Positions 2,785-55,446 are shown, counted from the first letter of the stretch. The stretch: 64,000 bases of DNA from Parcubacteria group bacterium M6-OD1-3 (GCA_003056165.1 LSNR01000002.1:2726-66725), one strand, 5' to 3'. Made by a program: numbers and translations. The notes: a model not told the origin generated them from the sequence alone.

Positions 2785-2902
2785 TGTTATCCTCCTTTTG
2801 TGATGACAAATACCAGTTTTTATTTTTTGCCGTTAAAAATTTTGCTAAATCAAAATACTACCATTTTTATACCACGCCGAAACAAATATGTCCAATAAAA
2901 AA

Positions 2903-2923
2903 CAGCGAGGTTGAACCTCGCTG
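2903..2923. terminator. hairpin cagcgagg-ttgaa-cctcgctg with flanking A/T runs (bidirectional)
   Basis: Read directly; lies just downstream of the ABC ATPase gene. Confidence 0.55.
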
Positions 2924-2955
2924 TTAAAATTATTACACTATACAAACACACCTCA

Positions 2956-3639: not shown

Positions 3640-3646
3640 ATAATAA

Positions 3647-4867: not shown

Positions 4868-4881
4868 AATAATCTACTATT

Positions 4882-10061: not shown

Positions 10062-10070
10062 GATGATATT

Positions 10071-11522: not shown

Positions 11523-11828
11523 ATTATTATCGAAAAATCTATTAGACCTTTTGCAAAACTTCTTCGTTGCGAAATTTTTTAACTCTTAACGAAACGAGTA
11601 TACTAAGTAAATTATAATGTACTTAATGTACATTAAAAGATAATTTACGAAATTAGACGAAGTTGTAGTAAGAGTTAGGAAATTACAGTAGAAGAGGTTG
11701 TGTGAGAGGTCTATTACCTTATTACAAGTTTTAAGTATACGCCAAAAATAGTATTTATGCAATAAACATTTATTCTTCGAATTCAAACCTTCTTGAAGTT
11801 AATTTTTCTCTTTTTTTTAAAATTTATA

Positions 11829-11860
11829 AAAGGCTGTGGTAATTTTTACCAAAGCCTTTT
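11829..11860. terminator. long stem-loop (aaaggctgtggtaa...ttaccaaagccttt) downstream of the MFS gene
   Basis: Inverted repeat read directly. Confidence 0.45.
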
Positions 11861-11865
11861 CGCTT

Positions 11866-13047
11866 CTATACGGCTTTTTTCTTATAAACCATAAACAAAG
11901 TACTGCATCCCAAAAAAAGAAATATAATCCCTGAATAGAATATAGCTTCTTTAAGTGAAAAAACATCGCTTATCCACCCTACTATCGGACCAACTATTGA
12001 AAATAGAATTCTCGAAAATAGGTTTTTTATAGATAATATTGTAGCTCTTCTATTTGAAGATATCTGCCTATTGATATATGCTGAAACTATAGGATCATGA
12101 ATACCTCTTACCAAATAAAATAATCCCATAAAAATAATTGACCAGCTTGACCAAAAATACATTAAAGAAAAATAGCCTACACTAACCATAACCACCAAAG
12201 AAGTCAGTATTTTCTTTTCTCCAAAAAAATTTTTTATTTTTTCAGTATTCCAAGAAATAAAAGCAGATAGTAACATTAATCCAGCCCAGATTATTCCAAA
12301 AGCTCCTATAGATATACCAACTTCCTTAAGATAAGGTTGAATCATCCAAACCATAGTCAGCGTAGAAGCACTTATCACAGATGAATACAAAATTACCCAT
12401 TTAAGTCCATTGCCTTTGCGCAATAAATCCTTTATGATATCGAGAATTCCCTCCATTGCGTTTTTTTTATTTTCAACCGAACAAACAGCTGGCTCAACGA
12501 TTGAAAGCACTACCGGAAAAGAAGCTATTATCACAGTCGTTTCTAAATAAAGTGGCAACCTCAAACTAACAAGTGCAATAACTCCACCTAAAACGCTAGC
12601 TATAGCTTCTGACACTAACCCCGCAGAAAATCTCCTTCCTTCTAGTCTAGAATAATATTCTTCACCTCCTCCCTCTAATAAAGTATCATACAATAACGCT
12701 GTATCGGTTCCTGAAGAGAAACTAATACCAAAGCCCAAAAGAACTTCAGCTATTACAAATTGCCAAAATCCACTAGCTAAAGAATAACAGAAATATCCTC
12801 CGATAATAAACAAGTGTCCTGCAATTAAAGTTTTTCTTCGCCCTATCCTATCAGAAAAATATCCAGAAGGAATTTCCAAAAAAATAACAGCTACAGAAAA
12901 CAATGACTGCAAGACAAATATGTCATGCATAGAAAGTCCATTTTCCTTAAAAAATAGCGTAATTACCGGCATTATAAGCATAAAATTTCCCGCTATCTTA
13001 ACCACATAAAGCTTCCACACATTCGATGCTACATTTCTTTTTTTCAA
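11866..13047 (-). CDS. MFS transporter
   Basis: About 12 predicted TM segments; 'GYFSDRIGRRK' loop 2-3 motif. Confidence 0.75.
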   Translation of the reverse strand: MKKRNVASNVWKLYVVKIAGNFMLIMPVITLFFKENGLSMHDIFVLQSLFSVAVIFLEIPSGYFSDRIGRRKTLIAGHLFIIGGYFCYSLASGFWQFVIAEVLLGFGISFSSGTDTALLYDTLLEGGGEEYYSRLEGRRFSAGLVSEAIASVLGGVIALVSLRLPLYLETTVIIASFPVVLSIVEPAVCSVENKKNAMEGILDIIKDLLRKGNGLKWVILYSSVISASTLTMVWMIQPYLKEVGISIGAFGIIWAGLMLLSAFISWNTEKIKNFFGEKKILTSLVVMVSVGYFSLMYFWSSWSIIFMGLFYLVRGIHDPIVSAYINRQISSNRRATILSIKNLFSRILFSIVGPIVGWISDVFSLKEAIFYSGIIFLFLGCSTLFMVYKKKAV

Positions 13048-40947: not shown

Positions 40948-41211
40948 TTATATCTCGTTAATAATTTTTACCATCTTTTTATAAATCAACCAGCTGGTTA
41001 ACACTACTGAAATAAAGATACCTAGCAATAAAAACCACGGGGCACTATCTAACTTTTTATCTAACAATTTTCCACCTAACGCCAATAATACAATTGGAAT
41101 AGCAATAGTGTAACCCAACTCCATCGCCAAAGAAAAAACAGACCACTGTCCATCTATACTATTATTTTTCATTTTAATACAAAAACTAATTTTGTTTACT
41201 ACTAAACACAC
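40948..41211 (-). CDS. AtpI/AtpZ-like small membrane protein
   Basis: Position at head of atp operon; two TM segments. Confidence 0.45.
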   Translation of the reverse strand: MCLVVNKISFCIKMKNNSIDGQWSVFSLAMELGYTIAIPIVLLALGGKLLDKKLDSAPWFLLLGIFISVVLTSWLIYKKMVKIINEI

Positions 41212-41255
41212 CTATTATATCCAAAGCACTTATAAAAGTCAACTAAAATTTATTT

Positions 41256-42071
41256 TTATAAAGTAAACAATTTTCTAGCATTGTCAGTTGTTTGCTTCTC
41301 GACTTCTTTGATGTCAATTTTTAAAACATCTGCAATTTTTTTTGCCGTATATCTAACATTAATTGGTTCATTGCGACTATATCTCTCCAATGGTGATGGC
41401 GTTAAATATGGAGCATCTGTTTCTAGTATAATGTTTTTCAATCCAATTTCTTTTATTAATTTATCATAGCTTTCCGTATAAGTAACAATTCCATTTAAAC
41501 CAATTTTAAAACCCAGCTCAATAAACTTTTCCGCTGTTTTATAATTGCCAATAAAACTATGCACTACCCCTCTTCTTTTTACCAAGTTTTCTTTTAATAT
41601 TTCTAATAAATCATTGTACGCATCCCAACAATGTATAGCTATTGGTTTTTTTACTTCATTAGCAAGTCTGATGAATTCCTTAAAAACTTCTTTTTGTTTT
41701 TTCTTAATCTTCAATATTTCTTCTTCACCAAGCTTCTTATCGAAATGATGATAATCTAATCCCACTTCCCCAATTGCCACTACTTTTTTATTTTGTGCTA
41801 ATTGTAAATACTTTTTATAATTAAGTTTTTCAATATAATTTTCTTCGGGTAAAACATTTGGCGAATTAAAAAGATGGATTGGATGCAAACCTACTACCGC
41901 CCAAACTCCACTAGTATATTTTTCCGCATATTCAATTGCCCGCTGACTGGTTCGCCATTCTGCACCAACATTAATAAGCTGGACATCATTTTCTAGTGTC
42001 CGCTTAATCACCATATCTGCATCTTCTTTAAAATCCTTAAAATTTAAATGACAATGTGTGTCTATTAGCAT
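41256..42071 (-). CDS. tatD: TatD-family metal-dependent DNase
   Basis: 'MLIDTHCHLNF' N-terminus. Confidence 0.9.
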   Translation of the reverse strand: MLIDTHCHLNFKDFKEDADMVIKRTLENDVQLINVGAEWRTSQRAIEYAEKYTSGVWAVVGLHPIHLFNSPNVLPEENYIEKLNYKKYLQLAQNKKVVAIGEVGLDYHHFDKKLGEEEILKIKKKQKEVFKEFIRLANEVKKPIAIHCWDAYNDLLEILKENLVKRRGVVHSFIGNYKTAEKFIELGFKIGLNGIVTYTESYDKLIKEIGLKNIILETDAPYLTPSPLERYSRNEPINVRYTAKKIADVLKIDIKEVEKQTTDNARKLFTL

Positions 42072-42284
42072 AGCTTATTGTTTTATATACTTATTTTACT
42101 TATAATTAAAATACTTCTGACTTTAATACTAACTTATAATCTTATAACACACAAAAAATATGCAACACTATTTTCTTTCTAAAACAAAAATTCCAGAAAA
42201 CTTACCAGCAGAAATGCAAGATGCAATCAACAACTTAAAGCAATCTACTGACCAAAAAAATGTCTACACAAAGCCTACAAACTA

Positions 42285-42602
42285 ATGACTACTAAATACA
42301 GAGGCTATCGACTTAAAACATATCTTAATTTTTTTCAAATTTTTATATTTGATATTACAAAGCTATGGAATAGAACAGGATTTATTCATTGTCATAACGC
42401 CAACTATTTAATGAGAATATTATTGGTAAAAAGCGGTTTTTTTAAAAATAGCGATATTCAAAATAAATGGACACTGGTGTGGTATTTTTCTCCACATCAA
42501 TATCTACAAATAAAATTAAATAATGGCAGTACTATAAATATTGATATTTGGGGAAGTGCTTATGGAGTTAAATTTGGTAATTATGCGCATGGCATTCATT
42601 AA
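42285..42602 (+). CDS. small transglutaminase-like (Cys/His papain-fold) domain protein
   Basis: 'FIHCHNANYLMRILLVKSG…H…INIDIW' pattern; start overlaps (TAATG) a 41-aa upstream ORF at 42160-42285. Confidence 0.35.
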   Translation: MTTKYRGYRLKTYLNFFQIFIFDITKLWNRTGFIHCHNANYLMRILLVKSGFFKNSDIQNKWTLVWYFSPHQYLQIKLNNGSTINIDIWGSAYGVKFGNYAHGIH

Positions 42603-42640
42603 AGTTTTTTCAATTCCGTCTCCAAAACCTTTTTTCCATC
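42593..42640. repeat. 48-bp perfect direct repeat, left copy (right copy 52773-52820)
   Basis: cattcattaaagttttttcaattccgtctccaaaaccttttttccatc read identically at both sites. Confidence 0.9.
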
Positions 42641-42685
42641 TTCAGTGAATAGAAATTTAATAAAAAAAACCAATTTAGTAAAAAA

Positions 42686-43429
42686 CTAGCATTTCCTCCA
42701 AATAAATTTTAAAAAATTCATTTGCAATTTTGCCATTTCTCTATTTTCAATCACTACGCCAACAAAATTTGTTAAAGATATCATAGCAACTTTATCTCCA
42801 GAAACCAATAAATCTACATCAAACAAAAAATCTTTTGGCAATAATTTTGACTTACCTATATTATCAACAATGCCATTTTCAACATAACGCTTACCCTCCT
42901 TAGTATTCTCAACTAAGTCTCTTAACTCTCCGCCACTTTCATAAATATTTTTTAAAAATTCTCCACCATCTTTTTCACTAAATACAGTATAATATCTGTC
43001 GGCAGAAAAAATACTCCATAATCTTTTTGGTGTTTTAGTCATTTCCCGATAAATTGAGCGCATTCCTTCCTTACCTTCGTAAAATTTTACAGTTGGCTTC
43101 TTAGATGAAGTGTTATGCAAATCGACAAGCAATGGCAAAATCTCTTTCGCCTTTCTTTTTCTTTTTTCCAAAATGGTTAAAATCTTTTTAGGATTTTGTG
43201 GTATATAGTAAATGCGCTTTCCTTTAAAAGTTTTCTGCAGTAAGTCTTGTTTAAGCAATTTATCTACATAAATATACAATGCTGTTCTAATTATGTTAGA
43301 CTCGCGTGCAATTTCCGTGATATTAGCCACACCCAATCTCAACACGGCCAAATACACTTTGGCCTCATTTTTAGAAAAACCAAGTTCTCTCAGAATTTTC
43401 TCAATTTTTTGCTTATTTTCCATATACAT
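42686..43429 (-). CDS. TrmB-family transcriptional regulator
   Basis: N-terminal wHTH 'LGFSKNEAKVYLAVLRLGVANITEIARESNIIRTALYIYVDKLLKQDLL'. Confidence 0.7.
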   Translation of the reverse strand: MYMENKQKIEKILRELGFSKNEAKVYLAVLRLGVANITEIARESNIIRTALYIYVDKLLKQDLLQKTFKGKRIYYIPQNPKKILTILEKRKRKAKEILPLLVDLHNTSSKKPTVKFYEGKEGMRSIYREMTKTPKRLWSIFSADRYYTVFSEKDGGEFLKNIYESGGELRDLVENTKEGKRYVENGIVDNIGKSKLLPKDFLFDVDLLVSGDKVAMISLTNFVGVVIENREMAKLQMNFLKFIWRKC

Positions 43430-43707
43430 TTATTATGATTTTATGAAAATCTAACTATCATAAAAATTTATAAACTATTTTTATACTAATTAGGTTTTAC
43501 CTTATACTAAAAACTTAAAAGTGTCAACTTCTTTTGACACTTTTTTTAAAAAATAAACAGAATTGGGCTTAAAATAAGCGTTTTTACTAAAAATTTGACA
43601 ATAAAATTGTAAAAATTTGTATAAATTGTAGTATTCTAGTAGTTCATTGCATTCAAAAGCGCGAACGACGAATATCGTTTGAGCGCCAAAACCCGGGAGG
43701 TGGGAAA

Positions 43708-44310
43708 ATGAAGATAATCATTATCCGTCATGGTGTGGCGGAAAAAAGATTGAGCGGACAGGACGATTTGGATCGTCCTTTGATGAAAAATTGCGAGGAG
43801 TTTATCCCTCGACTCGGCGAATTTGATGCCGTTTTCTCTTCGCCGGCTCGCCGGTGTATTGAAACGGCAAAACTGGCGAGCGGACAAAACCCTATCGTTA
43901 TCAATTCTCTTTCCACTCATTTGTGGAATGTAAAAGTTGATAATGTTGAGGGTTGGGAACTAATTGAAAAATGTTACTATCTTCCGGATGGTAGCATGGC
44001 AGAAATTCCGCTCACTATGGCGTGGAAAAATATCTCTGCGCCGAAACAATCAGAAGCATGGAGACTTATTACCGGCGAGGCAATAAGTAAAATGTTTCAT
44101 GGCTACGGAATTGCGTGGAATCGCGTGCTTATTTGCATGCATCAATTCCACGCCCAAATGCTGGCGATTCGCCTGTTGGGCGAAAATCAGCCGGCAGTTG
44201 AAAAGTTTATTCGGGAAATGTATCTCCCTCCCGGAGGAACGATTCCATTAGAAGTTTTCCCCCTAGTGATTCGACCATCCAGAGGAAGAAATGGAGGAAT
44301 TTTTTTCTAG
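43708..44310 (+). CDS. histidine phosphatase superfamily (SixA / PGAM-like) protein
   Basis: 'IIIIRHGVAEK' RHG motif at N-terminus; locally GC-rich. Confidence 0.7.
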   Translation: MKIIIIRHGVAEKRLSGQDDLDRPLMKNCEEFIPRLGEFDAVFSSPARRCIETAKLASGQNPIVINSLSTHLWNVKVDNVEGWELIEKCYYLPDGSMAEIPLTMAWKNISAPKQSEAWRLITGEAISKMFHGYGIAWNRVLICMHQFHAQMLAIRLLGENQPAVEKFIREMYLPPGGTIPLEVFPLVIRPSRGRNGGIFF

Positions 44311-44318
44311 GTTTTTGG

Positions 44319-44358
44319 CCATTATCTCGTTATGGCTAAACGAGATAATGGTTTTCTT
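44319..44358 (+). terminator. 12-bp stem hairpin ccattatctcgt…acgagataatgg plus T-run
   Basis: Read directly. Confidence 0.55.
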
Positions 44359-44425
44359 ATAAAGTTTTCAAATTTAATTTGAAATTTTTTAAGGAAAGAC
44401 TATTTTAATAATTTAAAGCAAAAAT

Positions 44426-45817
44426 ATGGTTAAAAATAAAAATAAAAAAACCTCTTGGATTGACGACTATGCCAAAGCGGTAAAAGACTTTACTTATGAT
44501 CATGACCCGAATTCTCATCAACCTTTTGACGCCTTTTATTTCTATCCTTACTACTTTGATTTATGGTTGGATAAAATTTATCGCGCGATTGTTTTAATTA
44601 AAAGCAATGGAATTAACGATAAGGAAATTTTTTCCAAAATACCATCCCCTTCTTCTTTACGATTTGTATTTTACACAATCGTTAATATGACAGCTTATCT
44701 CAAATATCCAAAAACAAAATCTCGTGTTATTATTGATTTTTTCTTTAAATGTCTATCTAGTCAATCAAAAGATAATAATGTTTTTCATCAAGAAAGAATT
44801 TTGCTTAGAAGCAACGCAGAACTTAAAAAAATATTAACCGGCACCAAAAAAATAAAAACAAAATCCGAACAGCAATTAATTTCCAGATTGATCGGAACAT
44901 TATTGATGTATAATCACATTCTTTACAATGATTATTCAACTGACTATGGTTGCTGGATAGAGGGACCCTATAAAGTTGGTAATCGGATAATTTTAATTAG
45001 AAATTATCCGGATTTGTCGCCTAAAAATTTATGGCCGGAGTTGGAAAATCAATTCTTGAAAGACAAAAAGATTATAACCGTCTACAAAAATATTCCAATC
45101 AAAATGCAATATATGTCCAGCCACTTAGTTGCTAAAAATAATTATCAAAACAATCTTATCGCTTATCAAATATTCTCTAACGGCAAACCGCTCAATGATC
45201 TTTCCAGTTTGGACCAACTTATTAAAGACATTGCCAAGACAACCAGTCAACTGTACGAAAAAGTACGAAAAAAGAATATGACTGAAATTAAGGAACTTTT
45301 TTTACGACAGCAAGGATATGAACTAAAATGGCTATTTGATTTGGCTGGACTGGACTGGCGACCGGGCAACAAAAGACTTAAGCGAGCACAAAAAAGTAGA
45401 GTCCGCCGAAAAATTACTCCCGCCAGTAAACCGAAAACTCAAGAAGAATATGAATCACACATAGGAATTGATTTTTTGAGAAAATTATTTCAAAAAGATA
45501 TTACTCTTTATGGAAAAATAGCCAATAAAGGATTTGCTATCGGTAAAACGAAAATCGTTAAAACGCCAAAAGATTTTCGTTCATTTAAAATGGGTGATAT
45601 TTTGGTAACAACAATTACCAACCCCTCTTTTGTTGGCATCATTTCCAAAGCTGCCGCCATTATTACGGAACTAGGTGGCATCACTTCTCACCCGGCAATC
45701 ATTTCCCGAGAATTTAATTTGCCTTGTTTAGTTGGAGTCAAAAACGCCACCAAAAAATTAACTGATGGCGAATATATAGAAGTCAACGCTTACAAAGGGA
45801 AAGTCAAAGTTTTATAA
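44426..45817 (+). CDS. protein with unknown N-terminal domain (about 370 aa) and C-terminal PEP-utiliser mobile ('swivel') phosphohistidine domain
   Basis: 'GDILVTTITNPSFVGIISKAAAIITELGGITSHPAIISREFNLPCLVG'. Confidence 0.7.
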   Translation: MVKNKNKKTSWIDDYAKAVKDFTYDHDPNSHQPFDAFYFYPYYFDLWLDKIYRAIVLIKSNGINDKEIFSKIPSPSSLRFVFYTIVNMTAYLKYPKTKSRVIIDFFFKCLSSQSKDNNVFHQERILLRSNAELKKILTGTKKIKTKSEQQLISRLIGTLLMYNHILYNDYSTDYGCWIEGPYKVGNRIILIRNYPDLSPKNLWPELENQFLKDKKIITVYKNIPIKMQYMSSHLVAKNNYQNNLIAYQIFSNGKPLNDLSSLDQLIKDIAKTTSQLYEKVRKKNMTEIKELFLRQQGYELKWLFDLAGLDWRPGNKRLKRAQKSRVRRKITPASKPKTQEEYESHIGIDFLRKLFQKDITLYGKIANKGFAIGKTKIVKTPKDFRSFKMGDILVTTITNPSFVGIISKAAAIITELGGITSHPAIISREFNLPCLVGVKNATKKLTDGEYIEVNAYKGKVKVL

Positions 45818-45898
45818 TAATTACGAAATTTCAATAAAAAAAGCCTTGCCTCACATAAACTGTGTAAAGCAAGACTGAAATAATCTTAGACTTGGAAA

Positions 45899-46549
45899 CT
45901 ACAACGATAACTCAAAGCCGTCGTTGTAACCCTCGGAAACATTTTCCATTCCCATTTCTTTTCCGAAGTTATAAACACATTCACCATGGGTGATCACCCA
46001 GGCAATTGTGTCATCTTCTGCTCGTTTGAGCATTTCATAAATCTCAGTAATTACAAGACTCATTCTTTTGGCAATATGTTCGGGACCCTCCGCCCCAAAC
46101 CTCAATCGCTCCTCACGATATTGATCGGTCGAAAAAGCCTTCCAGAAATCCGCTCCCTGCCCCACACACTTTTTGCGGAGAAACTCAGCGAACGAAGTTT
46201 GGAACATAAGTGCCTCGCCCAGCCGGAAATCCAACCGAACATCAATAACGTTTCCGTTAGCATCCCGAATCTCCTCGGCAATTATTTTTGCCGTTTCATA
46301 AGCTCTTTGCCCCAATGTCGGGTCATCAAGCCAATAGGTTGGCGAGTACACGATTAGAAAATTCGTCGCTGGCACCATGTCAACCTCGGTAGATAGACGC
46401 AACAAGGTTTTAATCTTAACACCCTCAACACCCTTCGGAGTCAAACGACCCAATGTCGCCTGCTCCTCTGGAGTTGCGTTTCCTATGCCACCCTCCGGCC
46501 AACTGGAATCGTAGCGACCGTGTCGCTGGATAATAATTTTCTTCATCAC
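45899..46549 (-). CDS. histidine phosphatase superfamily protein (second copy)
   Basis: 'IIIQRHGRYD' RHG motif; locally GC-rich. Confidence 0.65.
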   Translation of the reverse strand: MMKKIIIQRHGRYDSSWPEGGIGNATPEEQATLGRLTPKGVEGVKIKTLLRLSTEVDMVPATNFLIVYSPTYWLDDPTLGQRAYETAKIIAEEIRDANGNVIDVRLDFRLGEALMFQTSFAEFLRKKCVGQGADFWKAFSTDQYREERLRFGAEGPEHIAKRMSLVITEIYEMLKRAEDDTIAWVITHGECVYNFGKEMGMENVSEGYNDGFELSL

Positions 46550-46659
46550 TATACCTCCTTTGTATCGTGATGTTTTTTCAAATTAAGCAAACTATATTAT
46601 TATATAGTTTACCTCCACTGACATTTCACTATCACATAAATGCAAAATAAAGTCAATAG

Positions 46660-47823
46660 CTATATAGTTTTTAAATCAAAATCAGTCAAATCAGGTGTCA
46701 TTACTTTTGCTTTTAATTCATCCGGCAAATACCAAACAAAGAAATAAAATGTTCCTGCATGTCCTGTTGGCTCGTCAATAAATTTAATCCCTTGCTTCTT
46801 TAATAATTTTTTCATTTTAACTTGAATTTCGCCGAGCCAGAGCGGAAGTAATACCGGGTCAATCATTCCCATCACATCTTTATACATTGCCAAGTTTTTT
46901 ACTTGCTCATAAGATAAAACGAATAATTCATATTCTTTTTTATTAAGTTTTTTCTTTGCTTCAAACTTTATTCTTCTTATTTTTTTCTTCATCAAAGCAT
47001 GTCTTTCTATCAACTTTTTGTTTCCCTTCCTAAACTCAACCGCATGAGTTAAAGCGTTATAAATAAGAGTTCTGTCACCACCTCGCATTTTAGTTTGCTC
47101 TATGGGAGTAAGAAGTAGCTTCTCTTTTAATACTTTAAAATCCTTTCGTTGAATAATATTATAAACTTTATCCCAAATCAAATTTATTTTCTTTTCATTT
47201 TTATCGACATTCTCATCTATCAAAATAATCGCTCTATTTAATAATTTTTTTATTTCAGGATCCTTAGATAAAATTTCTAAAATCTTTTGTCCGCCAAAAG
47301 AATCCAATAAATACAAGTCTGCATAATCTGTTTGTATTAAATCTCGTTGCAAAGAAGAAATCTTTTCCTCAAAATCTTCTGCGTCATTTCCAACATCAAC
47401 AATTTTGTATATAAGTCTTTTTAAATTGCTTATGAAAAACTCATGTAAAGGTCCATCAGAAAATAAATAATTAACTATCCAAAAACGATAGCAAATTAAT
47501 TTATTAAACCTTTGGTCTATACTAACTAAAAATTCCAGATCATTTTTATCACCGTTACCATAGTCTTTTTTGATTTTTGCAAAACCAACAAGTAATTCTT
47601 TTTGCGCCCAATCACCATATTTTCTAAATTTTTTTGGATTGTCAAAAACATTCTTAACAACACTTTCGTAATAAGAAATTATTGGAGGAAATTTATATGG
47701 ATAAAAACGCAAAAAACCTTCCAAATCGTTTGAAAGTGTTTGTGGAAATTTTAAGTATTTCTTATCAATCTTCATAAGTATAAATATTACCATTATCCCC
47801 ATCCAAAATAACTTTCTGTCCAT
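46660..47823 (-). CDS. hypothetical protein; possible paralogue of the N-terminal domain of 44426-45817 (shared F-x-F-YPY-x-F motif); start uncertain (overlaps upstream gene; alternative ATG at 47775)
   Basis: ORF track; similarity by eye only. Confidence 0.5.
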   Translation of the reverse strand: MDRKLFWMGIMVIFILMKIDKKYLKFPQTLSNDLEGFLRFYPYKFPPIISYYESVVKNVFDNPKKFRKYGDWAQKELLVGFAKIKKDYGNGDKNDLEFLVSIDQRFNKLICYRFWIVNYLFSDGPLHEFFISNLKRLIYKIVDVGNDAEDFEEKISSLQRDLIQTDYADLYLLDSFGGQKILEILSKDPEIKKLLNRAIILIDENVDKNEKKINLIWDKVYNIIQRKDFKVLKEKLLLTPIEQTKMRGGDRTLIYNALTHAVEFRKGNKKLIERHALMKKKIRRIKFEAKKKLNKKEYELFVLSYEQVKNLAMYKDVMGMIDPVLLPLWLGEIQVKMKKLLKKQGIKFIDEPTGHAGTFYFFVWYLPDELKAKVMTPDLTDFDLKTI

Positions 47824-49045
47824 CTTTTAAAACAATTGTTGCATTTTGAGTCCCAACTACGGCGGGAATATTAAATTCCCTTGACATAATGGCCGCATGG
47901 CACAAACTTCCTCCCAAGTCAGTGATAATTCCTTTAGATCTTTTTATTCCCAGTAAAAAAGGAGGTCTGGTCATCTTGGTAACAAGAATATCGCCTCTTT
48001 TTATTTTTGCCAATTCTTTACTCAAGCTTCCTGACATATTCATATCAATAATTCGAACAACACCGCTAACTTTTCCTCCTGAGGCTGAATACCCTGCCAA
48101 AACTCTTCTTGGCTTTCTTTCAAATTTCTTAAAATATATTCTCATTGCTTTTTCCAACGCCTGATATTCTATTGAAGATTGCAACCAACCTTTCTTATCG
48201 TGAGTAATTGGAATTCCTTCTATGTGCAGTTCTCCTATTATTTGCCGAATATCTTGATTTGGAGTAAGTCCAGTTTTATCATAGGTAGTCACAAGTCTTC
48301 CTCGTCTAAATGTGCTAAAACCATAATAACTTTTATTTAACCCAACCAATTGATACCCCCACCAACCAACGGCTTTACCTCCCTTAAATTTAATATTTAT
48401 TTTATTTTTCTTATCTTCAAGCAGCGTCGACTCGTAAGACTTACAATGACTTTTGTTAAAAATAATATCCACTTCCTTGTTGTTTATAAAAGGACCAAAC
48501 CTTGCTCCAAATTCAGTATTGATATTTTGCAATAATTTATCAGAAAATTTTACCTTTAGCTTTTTGATCACAACCACCGTGCCACTTGTTTTTTTATTTA
48601 CACCATTTTCAATATAAAATGGATATTCATTCCAATCTCCATTCTTCAACCAATCATCTTCACTGTATTTAATAATATATCTTTTATTAGAATTAATTTG
48701 AGTTGTATTTAATTCAAAAACCTTACCCAAAAATGATGTAGCTGTTTTTAATCCTAAGCCAAATTCTCCAAGTTTATTTTTCTTACTGGAAAATCCAAGT
48801 CTAATTGCTCTAGCGGACTCAATTTCACTCATTCCTCTTCCATTATCTATCACCTCAATTTTTTGAGGAGTTATGTTTATTTTTACTATCAATTTTTTAT
48901 TCGGTAAACGGGCGTCAATTGCATTATCAATAAGTTCAGATAAAGCTTCTTGAATAGAATATCCGGTCTGACTTATTTTTGTCAAAATACTCCTATGTGG
49001 AGTTATCTCAATAAACTTTTTCTCTATTTTTTTCGCCTTTTTCAT
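47765..49045 (-). CDS. GHKL (Bergerat-fold) ATPase fused to C-terminal PEP-utiliser swivel phosphohistidine domain
   Basis: N-box 'ELIDNAIDA', G1 'DNGRGM', G2 'GEFGLGLKTA'; C-terminus 'GDILVTKMTRPPFLLGIKRSKGIITDLGGSLCHAAIMSREFNIPAVVG'. Confidence 0.75.
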   Translation of the reverse strand: MKKAKKIEKKFIEITPHRSILTKISQTGYSIQEALSELIDNAIDARLPNKKLIVKINITPQKIEVIDNGRGMSEIESARAIRLGFSSKKNKLGEFGLGLKTATSFLGKVFELNTTQINSNKRYIIKYSEDDWLKNGDWNEYPFYIENGVNKKTSGTVVVIKKLKVKFSDKLLQNINTEFGARFGPFINNKEVDIIFNKSHCKSYESTLLEDKKNKINIKFKGGKAVGWWGYQLVGLNKSYYGFSTFRRGRLVTTYDKTGLTPNQDIRQIIGELHIEGIPITHDKKGWLQSSIEYQALEKAMRIYFKKFERKPRRVLAGYSASGGKVSGVVRIIDMNMSGSLSKELAKIKRGDILVTKMTRPPFLLGIKRSKGIITDLGGSLCHAAIMSREFNIPAVVGTQNATIVLKDGQKVILDGDNGNIYTYED

Positions 49046-49334
49046 TCCAAAATATTTTAAATTTTAAGTAATTTCAAAAATTCTACCATTAATTTCTATT
49101 ATTAACATATCTTTTTTATTATTCTCAGTCAAGTATCTGTACACGGTGTGTTTCATCTTATTTAGTATTATCATTGTCATGTTAATTACATTTAAAAATG
49201 TCATACCATTTATCAAATAGAAATGTCATGCTTTGAAAAATTTATTGATTTTTCAAATTTTAAAAAGTGGTCAAATTATGCACGTGCATAATTTGACCAC
49301 GGTCGAAAATTTATTTAATTTCTTTTGAAAAGTA

Positions 49335-51059
49335 TTATTTTGCTTTCTCCAAAATCCTCACAACGCCATTATCCGCATCAACTTCAACCAAATCACCGTC
49401 TTCCAAAACTTGTGTGGCAATTTTTGTTCCGATGATACACGGTTTTTTTAATTCACGAGCCACAATGGCAGCGTGACTTGTGATTCCTCCTTCATCTGTA
49501 ATAATTGCTTTAGCTTTTCTCATTAAGGGCATAAATTCTGGTCTTGTCATAGATGTAACTAAAATATCCCCTTTTTTGAATTTATTAAATTCTGAAAGTC
49601 TTAACACTGTTTTTACTTTACCTTCAATATCTCCTTTATATGCAACTTGCCCCATAAGCGATTCTTCGTCTCTTTTACAAGATTTAATATATTTTTCTTC
49701 CATTTTTTTCTTTATATCTTCAAAATTCTTATATTCAAATTCTGTAGAACCATCATAATTATGCAGAAATAAAACCCCTTCTTGTCTACTAATAATCTCC
49801 TCTTTTATTTTCTCTAAATAGTTTTTTCCTTTCAAAAACTCCTCAAAGGCACAATAATAAATTAATTCATTATTTAATCCAATTTCTCTAAAAAATCTTT
49901 CCCCAACTTTAAAGTTGATTACAATTCCCTTTCCCATAACATCTTTTTTCTTATCTCTTAAAACAAGAATTGTTTGTATATAATCGACTAATTGTTTTTC
50001 TTCTTTGTTTAATGAATCTCTCCAATTCTTAAAAGATTCTTTTGTTTCTTTGTATTCCAATTCTTCTTTTTTAAGTTCTTTAGATGCCATCTTATGATTC
50101 CTTAAGTATTCTGAGTAATCTTTCTTTATATTTTCTTCCATGTCTTTTATTGATTTTATTTCTATATATCCAGAGTAAGCATATTGCATCTCTTCAGCCA
50201 TATCCTTTACGTTTCTTAAATTTAATATTAAGTTTAGGATTTTTTTATGCCTTCTTTTATCAAAAGAATCCTCTGTTGGTATAATTGCTTTATCCCAGAC
50301 ATTTTCAACAACTTCAGGCTTTAAATCTAAATTGTGTTTATTAATAAATTCAAAGACAAGTTCCTTATCAAATTGTGTTGAGAACCATGCCGTGCAATTA
50401 TATTCCCTTACTAAACTAATTAGTCTTTCTAATTTTTTAATAATTTCTTCTTCTTTATAAGATTCTATATTTTTGTAAGACAAATCAAAATAAATTCCAT
50501 TTATCTCCTCCTCTAAAGTCTCTAAATATGAGATAGTTTTAGATAGTATTTTGTTATCTCTCATATACTTTACAAAAAAGTTTTCTGAAATCATATTATA
50601 CCTAGTTTCAGACATCAAAACAAAAGCTTTACCTTTTTTCATTGCTATAAGAAATTTTATATTTAAATCTTTAACTTTTCTGCCGAAATTAGGGGTAAAT
50701 CCTCCTGCTCCTGCAGCTAAAATTGAAACAGGAACTAAAGGATAAAAAACATCTCTTTCAAATCCTTTCATAAATTTACCTAAAAGTGTCTTGTGTTTTT
50801 GGATTATGCCACTAAGAGTCGTTATCGGTCTACTTTGCGTGATATAAAATTTTCCATTTTCTTGAGCCCATTCTATATCCTGCGGAAGTCCGTAATGGTC
50901 TTCTATTTTTTTAACAAGTTTCGCCAATTCTAAAATCTCTTTATCTGATAAAACTTGCTCTTGACCTTTTTCACCCAACTTCAACCACTCATTACCACCA
51001 CCATCTTTACGATAAAGTCCCCTGTCCTGCTCACTAATATTTTTTTCTAAAATTTTCAT
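49335..51059 (-). CDS. C-terminal fragment of a PEP-synthase / rifampin-phosphotransferase-like protein (end of ATP-grasp, central domain, swivel His domain)
   Basis: 'PQDIEWAQENGKFYITQSRPITTL' (end of PPDK_N) and 'GDILVTSMTRPEFMPLMRKAKAIITDEGGITSHAAIVARELKKPCIIG'. Confidence 0.75.
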   Translation of the reverse strand: MKILEKNISEQDRGLYRKDGGGNEWLKLGEKGQEQVLSDKEILELAKLVKKIEDHYGLPQDIEWAQENGKFYITQSRPITTLSGIIQKHKTLLGKFMKGFERDVFYPLVPVSILAAGAGGFTPNFGRKVKDLNIKFLIAMKKGKAFVLMSETRYNMISENFFVKYMRDNKILSKTISYLETLEEEINGIYFDLSYKNIESYKEEEIIKKLERLISLVREYNCTAWFSTQFDKELVFEFINKHNLDLKPEVVENVWDKAIIPTEDSFDKRRHKKILNLILNLRNVKDMAEEMQYAYSGYIEIKSIKDMEENIKKDYSEYLRNHKMASKELKKEELEYKETKESFKNWRDSLNKEEKQLVDYIQTILVLRDKKKDVMGKGIVINFKVGERFFREIGLNNELIYYCAFEEFLKGKNYLEKIKEEIISRQEGVLFLHNYDGSTEFEYKNFEDIKKKMEEKYIKSCKRDEESLMGQVAYKGDIEGKVKTVLRLSEFNKFKKGDILVTSMTRPEFMPLMRKAKAIITDEGGITSHAAIVARELKKPCIIGTKIATQVLEDGDLVEVDADNGVVRILEKAK

Positions 51060-51061
51060 AA

Positions 51062-52054
51062 TTATTTCTTTAACAACAACAAAAGCAAGCCGACAATTCG
51101 GTCTTTGTCTTTTGGTTTTGATTCTACTACCAAAAGAGTGATAGCAGTCAATGCTTCTGGAGTAATTTTATGTCTAAACTTTATGCCAACTTTTTGCAAA
51201 AACCAAATAAAAGCAAACGCTCCTGTTCGTTTGTTACCGTCGGTGAATGGATGATTTTTAACTACAAAATATAATAAGTGAATTGCTTTTTCTTCTACGG
51301 TTAAATAAACATCTTGACCAAAAACTGCCTGCAAAACATTTCCTAAAATTCCCTCTAAAGTTTTTTGTTTTTTCTCTTGGGCAAATAATTCTGTTGCTTG
51401 TTTTTTCTTAATTAGTTCTTTTTTGAATTTTGCCACTGCTTCATATAATTCATCAGCTTGAATTTTCACTTTCTTTTTAGTGCTTCCTTTAATCGGAAAT
51501 TTATCTTCATCATAAGATTCTAAAGATAACCACGCCCCGGAAAAAGATTTTATCAATTCTAAAATATCAGCAGTTTTTACTGCATTATTTTCGGGTAATA
51601 ATTTTTTGACATCATCAACTGCTTTGATGAATTTATCGTAATTTTTCCCGATGATTTCCGGATTCATATTATAACCTTGATAAATATATTGCCTTAATAT
51701 TCTATTTGACCATTTTCTAAATTTTACGGCTTGAGCTGAATTAGTACGATAACCAACTGCTAAAATAATATCCAAATTATAGAATTCAACTTGTCGTTTT
51801 ATTTCCCTTTTTCCCTCTTTTTGAACTTGTGCAAAAATTGCACTAGTTGAATTTTTATCAACCTCCTTATCTTTAAAAATATTTTTAATATGCTTAGTTG
51901 TCACAGAACGCTCTATTCCAAAAACCTCCGCAATTTGTTTTTGCGTCGCCCAAATAGTTTCATTACCAAAATCACCCCGTAATTCAATTCCGCCGTTTTT
52001 TGCTTGATAAATTACCAAGTTTTTATTTAATTTTACAATCTTTTTCTGAACCAT
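51062..52054 (-). CDS. Fic/Doc-family protein with N-terminal RhuM-like domain; intact Doc-type motif HPFTDGNKRTGAFA
   Basis: ORF track; motifs read directly. Confidence 0.8.
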   Translation of the reverse strand: MVQKKIVKLNKNLVIYQAKNGGIELRGDFGNETIWATQKQIAEVFGIERSVTTKHIKNIFKDKEVDKNSTSAIFAQVQKEGKREIKRQVEFYNLDIILAVGYRTNSAQAVKFRKWSNRILRQYIYQGYNMNPEIIGKNYDKFIKAVDDVKKLLPENNAVKTADILELIKSFSGAWLSLESYDEDKFPIKGSTKKKVKIQADELYEAVAKFKKELIKKKQATELFAQEKKQKTLEGILGNVLQAVFGQDVYLTVEEKAIHLLYFVVKNHPFTDGNKRTGAFAFIWFLQKVGIKFRHKITPEALTAITLLVVESKPKDKDRIVGLLLLLLKK

Positions 52055-52080
52055 ATTATTAACTCACTTTAATTAACTTT

Positions 52081-52779
52081 TTATTTTTTACCAACAACAT
52101 AACTATCCGGTGTGATTTGTCCAGAGACAATAGATTCTCCCAAACCAAATCCTGCTTCAATTATTATTTGATTTCTATCTTCTGTTACTGGATGAACAGA
52201 AAAAGCAATGCCTGATTTTTCAGAATTTATCATTTTTTGGATTACTACTGCGACGGAAATTTTATCTTTATTTAATTTTTTTTCAAAACGATAAAAGATT
52301 GCTCTCGACGTAAATAGTGAAGCCCAGCATTTTTTAACATTTTTCAATAAGTCTTTTTCGGTTGTATTTAAAAAAGAATCTAATTGTCCTGCCCAAGCAT
52401 TTTCTTGTCCGTCTTCCGCTGTAGCTGAGCTACGCACTGCAACAAACTTGGCATTTAACTTTTTAAATTCTTTTTCAATTTCTTTCTTGATTGCTTCTGG
52501 AATTTTTGCTTTTAAAATCAAAGACCGGATATTTTTTGACGCTTTTTCAACACTTTGAAGCTTTTTGACATTTACTTTTTTCAACTCTTTTTGTATTTTT
52601 GAAGTTAGATTATTTTTTTCTAAAAATTCTTCAAAAGTTTTTGTTAAAATCACAAAACCGTCTGGAACTGGAATTCCCGCTTGTGTCATCTCACCAAGTG
52701 AAGCCCCTTTACCTCCAGCAATATGAGTGTCTTTTTTTGATAGTTGTTCAAATGATTTGGTAAACATATCTTCATTCAT
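52081..52779 (-). CDS. N-terminal fragment of the same PEP-synthase-like ATP-grasp (PPDK_N) protein
   Basis: 'GGKGASLGEMTQAGIPVPDGFVIL'; ends …DSYVVGKK, where E. coli PpsA continues …DEFYVHKPT…. Confidence 0.75.
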   Translation of the reverse strand: MNEDMFTKSFEQLSKKDTHIAGGKGASLGEMTQAGIPVPDGFVILTKTFEEFLEKNNLTSKIQKELKKVNVKKLQSVEKASKNIRSLILKAKIPEAIKKEIEKEFKKLNAKFVAVRSSATAEDGQENAWAGQLDSFLNTTEKDLLKNVKKCWASLFTSRAIFYRFEKKLNKDKISVAVVIQKMINSEKSGIAFSVHPVTEDRNQIIIEAGFGLGESIVSGQITPDSYVVGKK

Positions 52780-52820
52780 TAAAGTTTTTTCAATTCCGTC
52801 TCCAAAACCTTTTTTCCATC
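52773..52820. repeat. 48-bp perfect direct repeat, right copy
   Basis: See 42593-42640; here it spans the NUDIX stop / PEP-synthase-fragment start. Confidence 0.9.
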
Positions 52821-53264
52821 CTTATTAAACAAAAAATTACCTTCAAAGTTTTTACCAGATAATAAAAGTGGCAACCAATACTGATCATCAACCCACATTT
52901 TTTTATAAGGAATTTCACTATGTTCAAACCATCTAGGCAACATTTCTTCCGTTTCTTCCGGCTCACCAATTATATTATCGCTGACAATAGAGAAAAAATT
53001 TACTTCCAAAATTTCTTTTAATTTATTTTCAAAACGAAAATCTATTATACCTCTTTTTATAAGACTCTCTTTGCTTTTTATTTTGAGACAACTTTCTTCA
53101 AATAATTCTCGCTCTGCTGCCTCAAAAATATTTTCATTTTTTTCTACTTTACCGCCAAAACCATTCCATTTCCCCATCCCAAACCCTCTCTTTTTCATTC
53201 CCAAAAGAATTTTTTCATTATCATAAACTAAAATCAGTGTCAGTTTTTGTTTTTTCATTATCAT
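52779..53264 (-). CDS. NUDIX hydrolase
   Basis: Nudix box 'GGKVEKNENIFEAAERELFEESCL'. Confidence 0.8.
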   Translation of the reverse strand: MIMKKQKLTLILVYDNEKILLGMKKRGFGMGKWNGFGGKVEKNENIFEAAERELFEESCLKIKSKESLIKRGIIDFRFENKLKEILEVNFFSIVSDNIIGEPEETEEMLPRWFEHSEIPYKKMWVDDQYWLPLLLSGKNFEGNFLFNKDGKKVLETELKKL

Positions 53265-53282
53265 AATAATATGGAGGCCTAA

Positions 53283-53305
53283 TATGGAGGCCTTGCCTCC
53301 ATATT
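53283..53305. repeat. REP-like GC-rich hairpin atatggaggc-ctt-gcctccatat (half-copy at 53269-53280; further copies at 53780-53798 and 53991-54013)
   Basis: Read directly. Confidence 0.7.
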
Positions 53306-53308
53306 CAT

Positions 53309-54010
53309 CTATTCAAAACTATTTTTTAATATTTCTTTATTTTTTAAAATACCCCGTAGCTGTCTATTGGCAAACTGCTCATACTCTTTCTTATCCCTAG
53401 TGAAAGAATCTAAAATATATCCAGTTGTACAAAGATTAGTTTTCATATTTTTTATATATTCAGGAAGGCTGGTTCTATATTTATTATTTCTGCCACTTTC
53501 ATCTCTTTTAATTTTGTGGACTTTAAAATTTAAATTGACATATACTGATAATCTATTCAAATATTCTTGTGTGCCAATATGCTTAGCTTTAAATTTCCCT
53601 TGAAACAAAGATCCATTTCTTTTGTTTTTCTTATTAAAATACATAGTATAACCTGTTCCAATCTTTTGCATAAATTTAGAAATACCACCTTCAATATTTT
53701 GTCTCAAGATAAAATGAAAATGATTTGGCAACAAACAAAATGCCACTACTTCTACTAACATGGAGGCCTTGCCTCCATTCTTAATCTTTTTAGAATACTT
53801 GTATTGTGGGACACCACCTAGAGAGTTTTCTTGATTAAATAAATCAATAATTTGTAAAAATTTAAAAAAATCTTGGCTATCTTCAAAAATAACTCTTCTA
53901 TCTATACCTCTATTGTAAATATGATAAAATTCGTCTGTGCTAAATCTTATTTTTCTTATACTCATACTCAATTTTATATCATTTTCCCCATATGGAGGCA
54001 AGGCCTCCAT
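53309..54010 (-). CDS. REP-associated tyrosine transposase (RAYT, IS200/IS605-like HuH Y1)
   Basis: 'FYHIYNRGIDRRVIFED', HuH 'LLPNHFHFIL', 'YTMYFNKKNKRNGSLFQGKFK'. Confidence 0.75.
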   Translation of the reverse strand: MEALPPYGENDIKLSMSIRKIRFSTDEFYHIYNRGIDRRVIFEDSQDFFKFLQIIDLFNQENSLGGVPQYKYSKKIKNGGKASMLVEVVAFCLLPNHFHFILRQNIEGGISKFMQKIGTGYTMYFNKKNKRNGSLFQGKFKAKHIGTQEYLNRLSVYVNLNFKVHKIKRDESGRNNKYRTSLPEYIKNMKTNLCTTGYILDSFTRDKKEYEQFANRQLRGILKNKEILKNSFE

Positions 54011-54027
54011 ATAGTTCTTGCAACTAT

Positions 54028-55446
54028 TTATTTTATTCTTTCAAACAAAATTTCTTTTTTACCTGTTTCTAGTTGTTGTTTTATTTTAATTGAAGTTTCT
54101 GGCATAAATGATTCTAGAAGCTGAGCTATAAAATACAAATCTTCAACTAATTTTTCCATTACTTTCTCAAATTCTTTCTTACTACTTTTTGCTAGTTCCC
54201 ACGGCTTTGTTTCTTCAATGTATTTATTACTCTTCTGAACAAGATGACTCCAAATTCTTTCTAGCGCCTTATCAAACCATAAGCTTTCGATAAACATTTT
54301 ATTCCACTGTATTGGATCATATATTTTTCTTTCAATATTACTAAAATCAATATTTTCACTTAATTTCACAACTCGCGAAACCAAATTTCCCAAACCATTT
54401 GCTAGATCAGCATTATATTTTTCAACCATTCTTTCTATTGTAATATCAATATCTTCTCCGAAAGTTCCAGCTGAAAGTAAAAGATAGCGTGTACCATCTG
54501 TACCAAATTTCTCCAACATCTCATCAATACTAATCACATTGCCGATTGTTTTACTCATCTTTTTTCCGTCCGATAAAATATGTCCGTGCACAAAAAGCTG
54601 TTTTGGCAACTCAATTCCTAAGTGCATTAACATTATTGGCCAAATTGTAGCGTGAACCCGTAAAATATCTTTACCCAACATTTGAATATTCGCTGGCCAA
54701 AAATCTGGAATTTTATTTACATCACCATTCCACCCTAGTCCTGTTAAATAATTTAACAAAGCATCAAACCAAACGTAAGCCGTGTGCGTTTCGTCAAATG
54801 GCAACGGAATTCCCCAATTAACATTTTTTCGTGAAATAGATAAATCTTCCAACTCATTATTTTTTAGAAATGACAAGATTTCCTTTTTATATTTTTCTGG
54901 TCTAATTTTAAAGTCATCACTTTCAATTTTTTGAATCAATTCAGTTTGTCTTTCATCCATTTTCATCATATAGCTTTCTTCCTTCATCACTTCCGGTTCT
55001 ACATTATGATCCGGACATTTTCCATCCACTAAATCACTTTCGTTTTTAAATTGCTCACAACCAACGCAATATAATCCTTCATATTCTCCCTTATAAATCA
55101 CTCCTTTATCATATAAAGTTTGCAAAGAAACCTGAATTGCTTTTTTGTGTTCAGGATTTGTCGTTCGAATAAAATTATCATATTCAATATCTAATTCTTG
55201 CCAAAGTTTTTTAAAGTCATCTGAAACTTCATTTACCAATTCCTGGGGTTTTTTGCTTTCCTCTTTTGCTTTTTGTGCAATTTTTGCTCCATGTTCATCC
55301 ATTCCCGTTAAAAAGAAGGTTTTTGTTTTTTGTAATTTATAGAATCGTGCTAATGCATCAGTCGCGACAGTTGTATATGCATGCCCAATATGCGGTTGTG
55401 CGTTAGCATAATAAATTGGAGTTGTTATATAAAATTTATTTTTCAT
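54028..55446 (-). CDS. metG: methionyl-tRNA synthetase (short form)
   Basis: 'HIGH' in 'AQPHIGHAYT', 'KMSKT', Zn knuckle 'CVGCEQF…CPDH'. Confidence 0.9.
   Translation of the reverse strand: MKNKFYITTPIYYANAQPHIGHAYTTVATDALARFYKLQKTKTFFLTGMDEHGAKIAQKAKEESKKPQELVNEVSDDFKKLWQELDIEYDNFIRTTNPEHKKAIQVSLQTLYDKGVIYKGEYEGLYCVGCEQFKNESDLVDGKCPDHNVEPEVMKEESYMMKMDERQTELIQKIESDDFKIRPEKYKKEILSFLKNNELEDLSISRKNVNWGIPLPFDETHTAYVWFDALLNYLTGLGWNGDVNKIPDFWPANIQMLGKDILRVHATIWPIMLMHLGIELPKQLFVHGHILSDGKKMSKTIGNVISIDEMLEKFGTDGTRYLLLSAGTFGEDIDITIERMVEKYNADLANGLGNLVSRVVKLSENIDFSNIERKIYDPIQWNKMFIESLWFDKALERIWSHLVQKSNKYIEETKPWELAKSSKKEFEKVMEKLVEDLYFIAQLLESFMPETSIKIKQQLETGKKEILFERIK

Follow-up and report, generated by a model that had tools for sequence, protein, structure and literature searches.

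In the recently recognized two-component dikinases HpeHI, CreHI and phenylphosphate synthase (PpsAB), a separate ATP-grasp subunit phosphorylates the swivel histidine carried by another polypeptide. AMP is formed, and the transfer of phosphate from one substrate to another can be catalysed by the swivel subunit on its own (PMC12167813). The published consensus of the catalytic-histidine loop of the swivel is GGXTS/CHAAI/VI/VA/SR (PMC12167813). The present analysis concerns a gene cluster in a 64,000-nucleotide stretch of DNA from Parcubacteria group bacterium M6-OD1-3 (GCA_003056165.1, LSNR01000002.1:2726-66725; the whole stretch is called the window below). The cluster encodes three proteins ending in a swivel domain, one of them fused to a GHKL ATPase (GHKL-swivel), together with an interrupted ATP-grasp domain, two orphan domains (Y1 and Y2) and two proteins of the histidine-phosphatase fold (HPA and HPB). 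It is best placed in the dikinase superfamily, as a novel variant made up of several subunits. An initial annotation of the same DNA had called its composition undescribed; no description was found in the searchable literature, the nearest account being that of the two-component dikinases (PMC12167813). The genes are as follows.

42686-43429, minus strand: TrmB-family helix-turn-helix (HTH) regulator (PF01978, E = 1.3e-12), divergent from HPA/Y1-swivel.
43708-44310, plus strand: HPA, a short histidine-phosphatase-fold protein (PF00300).
44426-45490, plus strand: Y1, an orphan alpha+beta domain of ~355 amino acids (aa), forming the N-terminal portion of Y1-swivel (463 aa).
45491-45817, plus strand: swivel phosphohistidine domain of Y1-swivel (GGITSH).
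45899-46549, minus strand: HPB, a divergent protein of the histidine-phosphatase fold, encoded third in the GHKL cassette.
46660-47775, minus strand: Y2, an orphan protein of all-alpha predicted fold, with 371 aa when translated from the ATG at 47775 (open reading frame, ORF, 46660-47823).
47765-49045, minus strand: GHKL-swivel, a MORC-type GHKL ATPase with S5 transducer and swivel (GGSLCH, His383), 426 aa.
49335-51059, minus strand: RPH-like body, 574 aa, of rifampin phosphotransferase (RPH)/PRK06241 type, comprising the C-terminal quarter of the ATP-grasp, a central domain of ~370 aa and a swivel (GGITSH).
51062-52054, minus strand: RhuM/Fic gene inside the ATP-grasp reading frame; it interrupts the system and is no part of it.
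52081-52779, minus strand: N-terminal three quarters of the ATP-grasp, phosphoenolpyruvate (PEP) synthase type (PPDK_N, E = 2.2e-77).

The swivel model PF00391 matched the C-termini of three ORFs, namely Y1-swivel at 44426-45817 on the plus strand (E = 3e-22, 78.5 bits) and, on the minus strand, GHKL-swivel at 47765-49045 (E = 5e-25, 87.3 bits) and the RPH-like body at 49335-51059 (E = 4.5e-27, 93.9 bits), against a gathering cut-off (GA) of 23.1 bits. These three were the only PF00391 domains found in the 64-kb window by the hidden Markov model (HMM) scan. The catalytic-histidine loops GGITSHPAIISREF, GGSLCHAAIMSREF and GGITSHAAIVAREL were found in the three swivel proteins; their cores (GGITSH in Y1-swivel, GGSLCH in GHKL-swivel and GGITSH in the RPH-like body) have the form GGxx[S/C]H and the loops agree with the published consensus. 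H383 of GHKL-swivel was invariant among 30 homologues. The three C-terminal swivel domains with a conserved histidine, and with them the idea of a phosphohistidine carrier at the centre of the cluster, were thus upheld. When the GHKL-swivel profile was compared with the PDB, its swivel part matched PEP synthase (PEPS; E = 2.7e-28) and RPH, and its loop TDLGGSLCH is similar to the TxxGGxxCH form of HpeHI/CreHI/PpsAB. No PEPS, PtsI, RPH, SixA or GpmA assignment over any NCBIfam cut-off was obtained for the cluster proteins, and they do not profile as an ordinary PEP synthase, phosphotransferase system (PTS) or cofactor-dependent phosphoglycerate mutase (dPGM).

Gene linkage was counted over one genome per species by scanning with a GHKL-swivel profile and annotating all ORFs with HMMs built from alignments; homologous loci from other genomes and metagenomes compared with the window are given L-numbers. 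A full-length GHKL-swivel was present in 29 loci from phyla of the ultra-small bacteria of the candidate phyla radiation (CPR), from gut Clostridia and from Christensenella, and 28 of these could be evaluated for the remaining parts. Y2 directly followed GHKL-swivel at all 29 loci. A PPDK_N ATP-grasp lay within the cassette at 26 of the 28 (fused to its own swivel at two, as in the window), and HPB at 23; a further family, HP367, occupied four more, so that the histidine-phosphatase fold was represented in 27/28 cassettes. This set of four parts is referred to as cassette A, and its conservation extends over CPR phyla and gut Clostridia. The common gene order, seen in a Campbellbacteria genome, a sporulating Firmicute and a Clostridia metagenome-assembled genome, was GHKL-swivel, a protein of ~370 aa, a protein of 230-280 aa and a stand-alone PPDK_N. 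L003 is a clostridial locus at which the four genes are intact. The claim of a functional cluster recurring in other genomes was therefore sustained. Y2 starts in the window at the ATG at 47775 and overlaps the GHKL-swivel stop by 11 nt; the same 11-nt overlap was present in the Firmicute loci read, which implies translational coupling of the two genes.

The GHKL-swivel family comprises at least 598 proteins, the best 120 of which were covered over their full length at 53-71% identity. Its hosts are many CPR lineages, Clostridia (uncultured gut Clostridia) and Christensenella, and a single cluster at 90% identity held 613 member sequences. The family and its obligate partners carry no annotation and, as far as was found, have not been the subject of a publication. 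Y2 has an all-alpha predicted fold (AlphaFold2, predicted local distance difference test, pLDDT, 94); when 1.84 billion representatives were searched with its profile, just 49 proteins were returned, all belonging to its own family, with no remote relatives or fusions. Conserved residues of Y2 are N16, D17, Y25, K28, K92, W99, N102, Y103, E136, D153, K299, D300 and D306. Neither Y1 nor Y2 belongs to a Pfam family.

The PEP-synthase-type ATP-grasp that had been read across 52081 and 49335 was confirmed as a PPDK_N domain in two parts, 52081-52779 corresponding to model positions 3-224 of 328 and 49335-51059 to positions 228-319 (E = 1.2e-17). Between the halves lies the gene at 51062-52054, which was absent from the initial annotation and matches RhuM (E = 7.6e-22), Fic (E = 1.9e-12) and PADLOC PDC-S23 (E = 3e-105). 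The N-terminal part ends in YVVGKK followed by a stop codon and the C-terminal part begins with MKILEKNISEQ at an ATG 2 nt past the Fic stop. Joined together, the halves aligned contiguously and without loss to intact stand-alone homologues, with 72% identity to the L010 protein, 64% to the L001 cassette gene and 60% to a cassette ATP-grasp-swivel fusion; the residues of the host ATP-grasp are almost all kept despite the insertion. The insert is bracketed by a 19-nt imperfect direct repeat (84%; 51066-51084 and 52084-52102, spacing 1018 nt) and looks like a ~1-kb gene-cassette insertion with target duplication. RhuM/Fic was not found at this position of the ATP-grasp in the other loci fetched, and the sole other match was a fragment ~3 kb downstream of the L006 cassette. 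The remainder of the 49335-51059 product gave PRK06241/RPH-type partial matches in NCBIfam, all under the cut-offs.

Because the joined ATP-grasp matches those of the cassettes, all four parts of cassette A occur in the window, the ATP-grasp standing upstream of the others rather than downstream. The RPH/PEP-synthase-like gene had been taken for a mere neighbour of the modules; with a PPDK_N core in 26/28 cassettes and in six of seven loci with unfused Y1 (see below), this view was given up. Since the only ATP-grasp of the window is cut in two by the Fic cassette, the local copy may be impaired.

The N-terminal part of GHKL-swivel matched HATPase_c_3 (Pfam, E = 1.3e-17), followed by a borderline Morc6_S5 transducer (26.3 bits against a cut-off of 26.2), in keeping with the canonical GHKL module annotated at first. 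The Bergerat residues E37, N41, D44, D67, G71, G93, G96 and G98, as well as the S5 motif H282-D-K-K285 with the catalytic lysines, were invariant in the 30 homologues. Profile matches of the GHKL part in the PDB were to MORC3 (E = 3.3e-16), MORC4, MORC2 and SMCHD1. Pfam gave no match to HisKA, HPt or Response_reg for the ten ORFs between 42686 and 53264. By its motifs and profile matches, the GHKL of the window is a hydrolytic GHL-type ATPase rather than the catalytic domain of a histidine kinase. As far as was found, this is the first fusion of a phosphohistidine carrier to a MORC-type ATPase.

These features bear on the role of phosphodonor originally given to the GHKL. According to that scheme the GHKL would transfer the gamma-phosphate of ATP to the histidine of its own swivel and from there to Y, the histidine phosphatases would reset the system and the ATP-grasp would serve only the RPH-like enzyme. 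The GHKL is indeed directly fused to a swivel, its ATP-binding and hydrolysis residues are all invariant, and four cassettes (L008, L039, L041 and L096) have no adjacent ATP-grasp. However, the domain is of the MORC/GHL type with an S5 transducer, GHL ATPases being hydrolytic clamps and not protein kinases; its closest relatives are solitary and swivel-less; HisKA/DHp is missing; an ATP-grasp accompanies 26/28 cassettes; and the Y1 modules have an ATP-grasp but no GHKL. A GHKL-driven relay is thus regarded as improbable, and the GHKL as an unlikely phosphodonor.

The closest sequence relatives of the window GHKL part are solitary GHKL + Morc6_S5 proteins of 500-560 aa, found at L043-L073 (match at ~10001-11600 in most). 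They are 36-46% identical to it, have the N-terminal ITPHRS motif in common with it and carry a charged C-terminal region in place of the swivel. They come from CPR, DPANN and other phyla, and their neighbours are variable, with DNA methyltransferases close by in ~7 loci.

MORC-type GHKLs are typical of conflict systems, and an anti-phage function was considered in which a MORC-like ATPase sensor or effector would be armed or restrained by a phosphohistidine switch within a defence island. A weak MzaB match at the GHKL N-terminus (E = 7e-9), the DNA methyltransferases that sometimes adjoin the solitary relatives, the AbiEi/AbiEii genes next to the cluster in L008, the PDC-S23 RhuM/Fic gene within the window cluster and the 55-70% identity between CPR and Clostridia, which suggests horizontal transfer, would all suit such a function. 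On the other hand, PADLOC 2.0 was negative for the cassette genes save for the weak MzaB match, the Fic gene is a non-conserved insertion, the neighbouring genes are mainly of housekeeping type (tRNA synthetases, ScpAB, sporulation genes) and no GHKL-swivel fusion was present in 50,697 phage records, 72,556 plasmids or IMG/VR. A defence role is rated as improbable. A known defence system was rejected, PADLOC having assigned no system to the cassette genes and the strong PDC-S23 match belonging to the inserted RhuM/Fic gene; a mobile origin was likewise rejected on the phage, plasmid and IMG/VR collections.

Two histidine-phosphatase genes had been proposed for the cluster. HPA scored over the cut-off of PF00300 (E = 2e-7, 31.3 bits; GA 21.7), the match being restricted to residues 3-64. 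It has RHG at residues 7-9, SPARRC, and a second histidine in CMHQFH, and R7, H8, G9, R49, H145 and H148 were invariant in three orthologues; the profile match together with RHG, R49, H145 and H148 places it in branch 1 of the histidine phosphatase superfamily. HPB as a single sequence stayed under the cut-off (19.2 bits; GA 21.7). At the level of the family it was recovered: R9, H10, S69, R82, T86, H188 and G189 were invariant in 20 sequences and the HPB profile matched the PGAM-fold structure 3eoz (E = 2e-7), so that HPB is a probable member of the same branch by these residues and profile. HPA and HPB as paralogues were rejected on an hhalign probability of 0.4%. The designation SixA-like could not be kept, as neither protein matched the SixA model in NCBIfam at E = 0.01 or better; HPA came closest to CobC among the NCBIfam models, with 21 bits where 162.9 are required, and no match was returned for HPB. 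The GpmA-type dPGM equivalog models of NCBIfam likewise gave no match for HPA or HPB.

The HP367 family, which substitutes for HPB in some cassettes, consists of proteins of 350-386 aa bearing VRHLxH, SRT and HGQ motifs. A comparison by hhalign relates the family to HPB (91.6%, E = 8e-7); no sequence match to it was obtained in Pfam or the PDB. Its members are the following.

L010, 12791-13894
L016, 8891-9967
L018, 12408-13568
L038, 12734-13843
L040, 12402-13451
L094, 12928-14001
L096, 7888-8991

The second module of the window, Y1-swivel, is rare. A search of 5.8 billion clusters yielded five proteins with Y1 fused, four with Y1 free and a single distant relative. Fused loci are invariably arranged as TrmB followed divergently by HPA and Y1-swivel, with HPA directly 5' of Y1-swivel at every one of them. 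L008, where the Y1-swivel module adjoins a GHKL cassette, is the one other genome with both modules adjacent; at L010 Y1-swivel stands beside further genes for swivel, phosphatase-fold and PPDK_N proteins. Seven metagenome loci have operons with free Y1, which comprise, in either order, PPDK_N (six of the seven), a protein of 281-313 aa, Y1 and a free swivel of 107-112 aa. In hhalign the 281-313-aa protein matched the HPB profile (73%, E = 3e-5), in an alignment of 231 columns that takes in both the RH and the GH motif. By this match the two orphans are each set among an ATP-grasp, an HPB-like protein and a swivel. No GHKL forms part of the Y1 modules. Beside the Y1-swivel of L008, an AbiEii/AbiEi toxin-antitoxin pair lies directly 3' (11405-12696); directly 3' of the GHKL cassette of the same locus there are 3 kb without an ORF of 100 aa or more (2040-5086), which may be a 23S rRNA gene.

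The product of 46660 had been thought to be related to the N-terminal domain of the 44426 protein. A homology of Y1 and Y2 was rejected on BLASTP (best E = 0.018, over 42 aa only), on two hhalign runs (probabilities of 0.35% and 0.1%) and on the predicted folds, which are alpha+beta for Y1 (pLDDT 78) and all-alpha for Y2. With neither homology between Y1 and Y2 nor profile similarity between HPA and HPB, the cassettes are analogous and not paralogous, contrary to the two paralogous modules first described.

Swivel arrays were seen in CPR and DPANN genomes. At L077, L079, L083, L085, L087 and L089 a stand-alone PPDK_N lies beside two to six consecutive genes, each encoding a different N-terminal domain (X) of ~240 or ~370 aa plus a swivel, and this arrangement suggests multi-paralogue split dikinase arrays. 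At L096 (1-891) a 562-aa HTH_26 + PEP-utilizers protein, an unusual fusion of a DNA-binding domain with a phosphohistidine carrier, is encoded a few kilobases from the GHKL cassette.

Such arrays of diversified X-swivel genes raise the question of whether the window simply holds independent small-molecule dikinases of the RPH/HpeHI type (acting on xenobiotics, antibiotics or nutrients) that are merely clustered, the histidine-phosphatase-fold genes being unrelated phosphatases or mutases. Two-component dikinases are known (PMC12167813), and the 574-aa protein has RPH/PRK06241-type partial matches. Against this, the co-occurrence of GHKL-swivel, Y2, HPB and ATP-grasp and the translational coupling are too strict for chance, an HPB-like gene is found again in the non-homologous Y1 operons, and the histidine-phosphatase-fold proteins are without a dPGM, SixA or CobC equivalog match. 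Chance clustering was consequently judged very unlikely.

The reading favoured here, to which about even confidence is attached, is that the window contains two analogous multi-subunit members of the PEP-synthase/rifampin-phosphotransferase 'dikinase' superfamily sharing one ATP-grasp. As parts of this joint reading, and with the same evenly balanced confidence, cassette A would be made up of GHKL-swivel, the coupled Y2, HPB and the PPDK_N ATP-grasp (in the window the N-terminal domain of the RPH-like gene), and cassette B, which is rare, of TrmB, HPA and Y1 fused to a swivel. Starting from the observed domain identities, catalytic residues and gene linkage, the following sequence of events is proposed. 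The ATP-grasp would bind ATP and place the beta-phosphate on the swivel histidine with release of AMP and Pi, as in PEPS, RPH and HpeHI. The swivel would then take the phosphate to a second site; the phosphatase-fold protein is the constant companion and Y the variable one, so that this site would most simply be made of the former together with Y1 or Y2. There the phosphatase-fold protein might accept the phosphate on the histidine of its own RH(G) motif, as a relay or eraser, or might dephosphorylate the product; these proteins might also reset the carrier. GHKL-S5, a complete ATPase by its residues, would most likely be a clamp or effector driven by ATP, its state being tied to the phosphorylation of its own swivel; this coupling is a guess, and the role of the ATPase is the weakest part of the model. 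We infer each of the phosphotransfer steps, and the existence of a Y-bound acceptor, from domain content and gene order.

Dikinase chemistry, from ATP-grasp to swivel histidine to second site, is considered the most likely and a GHKL histidine-kinase relay less likely, because the GHKL is of the GHL type without HisKA, HPt or REC and because charging by a separate ATP-grasp has a precedent. One charger for several carriers, as for the three swivel proteins of the window, fits the loci in which a single PPDK_N stands beside two to six X-swivel genes. Of the original phosphorelay interpretation, the recurrence and the carrier remain, while the paralogous modules, the GHKL donor, the neighbour status of the RPH-like gene and the SixA label do not; the genes are found together in many genomes, the swivels keep the carrier histidine, and the phosphatase-fold genes do not encode ordinary dPGMs.

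Several points weigh against the dikinase reading. Y1, Y2 and GHKL show no homology to the substrate domain (RIF-binding type) found in known small-molecule dikinases, and for this reason the label 'substrate-binding subunit' denotes position only. The GHKL has all the residues for its own use of ATP, which leaves a second ATP-dependent step unaccounted for, and a phosphatase that merely hydrolysed the phosphohistidine of the carrier would result in a futile ATPase. The four cassettes named above are without an ATP-grasp within the DNA span examined, and the system of the window may be impaired by its split ATP-grasp. A hitherto unrecognized His-to-His phosphorelay of CPR bacteria and abundant gut Clostridia, in which free or fused swivels charged by the ATP-grasp would pass their phosphate to the catalytic histidine of a dedicated phosphatase-fold partner and, in the main cassette, so gate the MORC-type ATPase working with Y2 on a macromolecular target, is a doubtful further possibility.

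The ten ORFs from 42686 to 53264 are flanked by housekeeping genes, with ATP synthase subunits and TatD upstream and methionyl-tRNA synthetase and pyruvate kinase downstream. The remaining features, the hairpins having been obtained by a consensus scan, are as follows.

44317-44353, plus strand: terminator-like hairpin with a 15-bp stem between HPA and Y1-swivel.
45842-45876, minus strand: terminator-like hairpin 3' of HPB, at the end of the GHKL cassette transcript.
49267-49300, minus strand: strong terminator-like hairpin (15-bp stem, T tract) between the RPH-like gene and the GHKL cassette.
52779-53264, minus strand: NUDIX hydrolase.

Judging by the hairpins at 49267-49300 and 45842-45876, GHKL-swivel, Y2 and HPB may be transcribed together as a unit of their own. 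Lying inside the two-gene unit of HPA and Y1-swivel, the hairpin at 44317-44353 might function as an attenuator or leaky terminator. The NUDIX stop overlaps the start of the ATP-grasp N-terminal part by one base. NUDIX and Fic were rejected as system components, neither being conserved at the other loci. The regulator was correctly annotated as TrmB; it is likewise divergent from HPA and Y1-swivel at L008 and L010 and lies within a few kilobases of the GHKL cassette at L023, L037, L040, L095 and L096. This recurrence at seven loci may be chance co-location if such regulators are common enough. An Rfam scan of 41000-55000 for riboswitches and other RNAs gave no meaningful match.

Plant glucan, water dikinase and the phosphoglucan phosphatases constitute a dikinase with a dedicated phosphatase cycling the phosphate on a substrate. 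The pairing of dikinase and phosphatase, with the sugar-type regulator TrmB nearby in the window, is similar by analogy only; unlike the plant system, the cluster has no carbohydrate-binding modules and its phosphatase is a histidine phosphatase and not a dual-specificity phosphatase (DSP).

The PTS has one charging enzyme and several histidine carriers, and SixA, of the histidine-phosphatase fold, strips phosphate from a histidine carrier. The cluster resembles the PTS and the SixA/NPr pair in combining a charger, several histidine carriers and a histidine-phosphatase-fold protein. It differs in its expected energy source, which would be ATP via the ATP-grasp and not PEP. Neither PEP-utilizers_C nor HPr or EII domains were matched by the cluster proteins in Pfam, the enzyme I (EI) models were matched by the swivel part only, far under their cut-offs, and unlike in the SixA/NPr pair there was no match to the SixA family. 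With PEP synthase and pyruvate phosphate dikinase the cluster shares ATP-grasp and swivel domains; unlike in these enzymes, its parts are spread over several genes and the PEP/pyruvate TIM barrel PF02896 had no Pfam match among its proteins. GHKL-swivel keeps the Bergerat motifs and S5 lysines of the MORC ATPases (GHL-type GHKL + S5), from which it is distinguished by a C-terminal region that is a phosphohistidine carrier and by the location of its gene within a phosphotransfer operon.

HpeHI, CreHI and PpsAB remain the closest relatives in design. As in these, a PPDK_N ATP-grasp stands on its own polypeptide and a TxxGGxxCH or GGxTSH swivel on another: a stand-alone ATP-grasp beside the swivel subunit was found in 26/28 GHKL cassettes and 6/7 unfused Y1 loci, that of the window being fused to the RPH-like body. 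By analogy with these enzymes and the single-chain RPH, the expected reaction would be the conversion of ATP to AMP, Pi and a phosphorylated acceptor via phosphohistidine. No HpeH/PpsA-type (RIF-binding-type) homology was detected in GHKL, Y1 or Y2, and for Y1 and Y2 neither sequence nor fold matched RPH or the other X-swivel N-terminal domains. Unlike in RPH and the two-component enzymes, the partner of the cassette swivel is thus a MORC-type GHKL or Y1 in place of a RIF-binding-type domain, and Y2 and a histidine-phosphatase-fold protein are added as obligate companions. The function that the hypothesis addresses is conserved in organisms whose genomes are minimal, and beta- versus gamma-phosphate labelling would be a cheap means of discriminating between the models. 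The cassettes would extend the two-component dikinases to four-part systems, the added parts being a constant histidine-phosphatase-fold subunit and interchangeable orphan specificity subunits.

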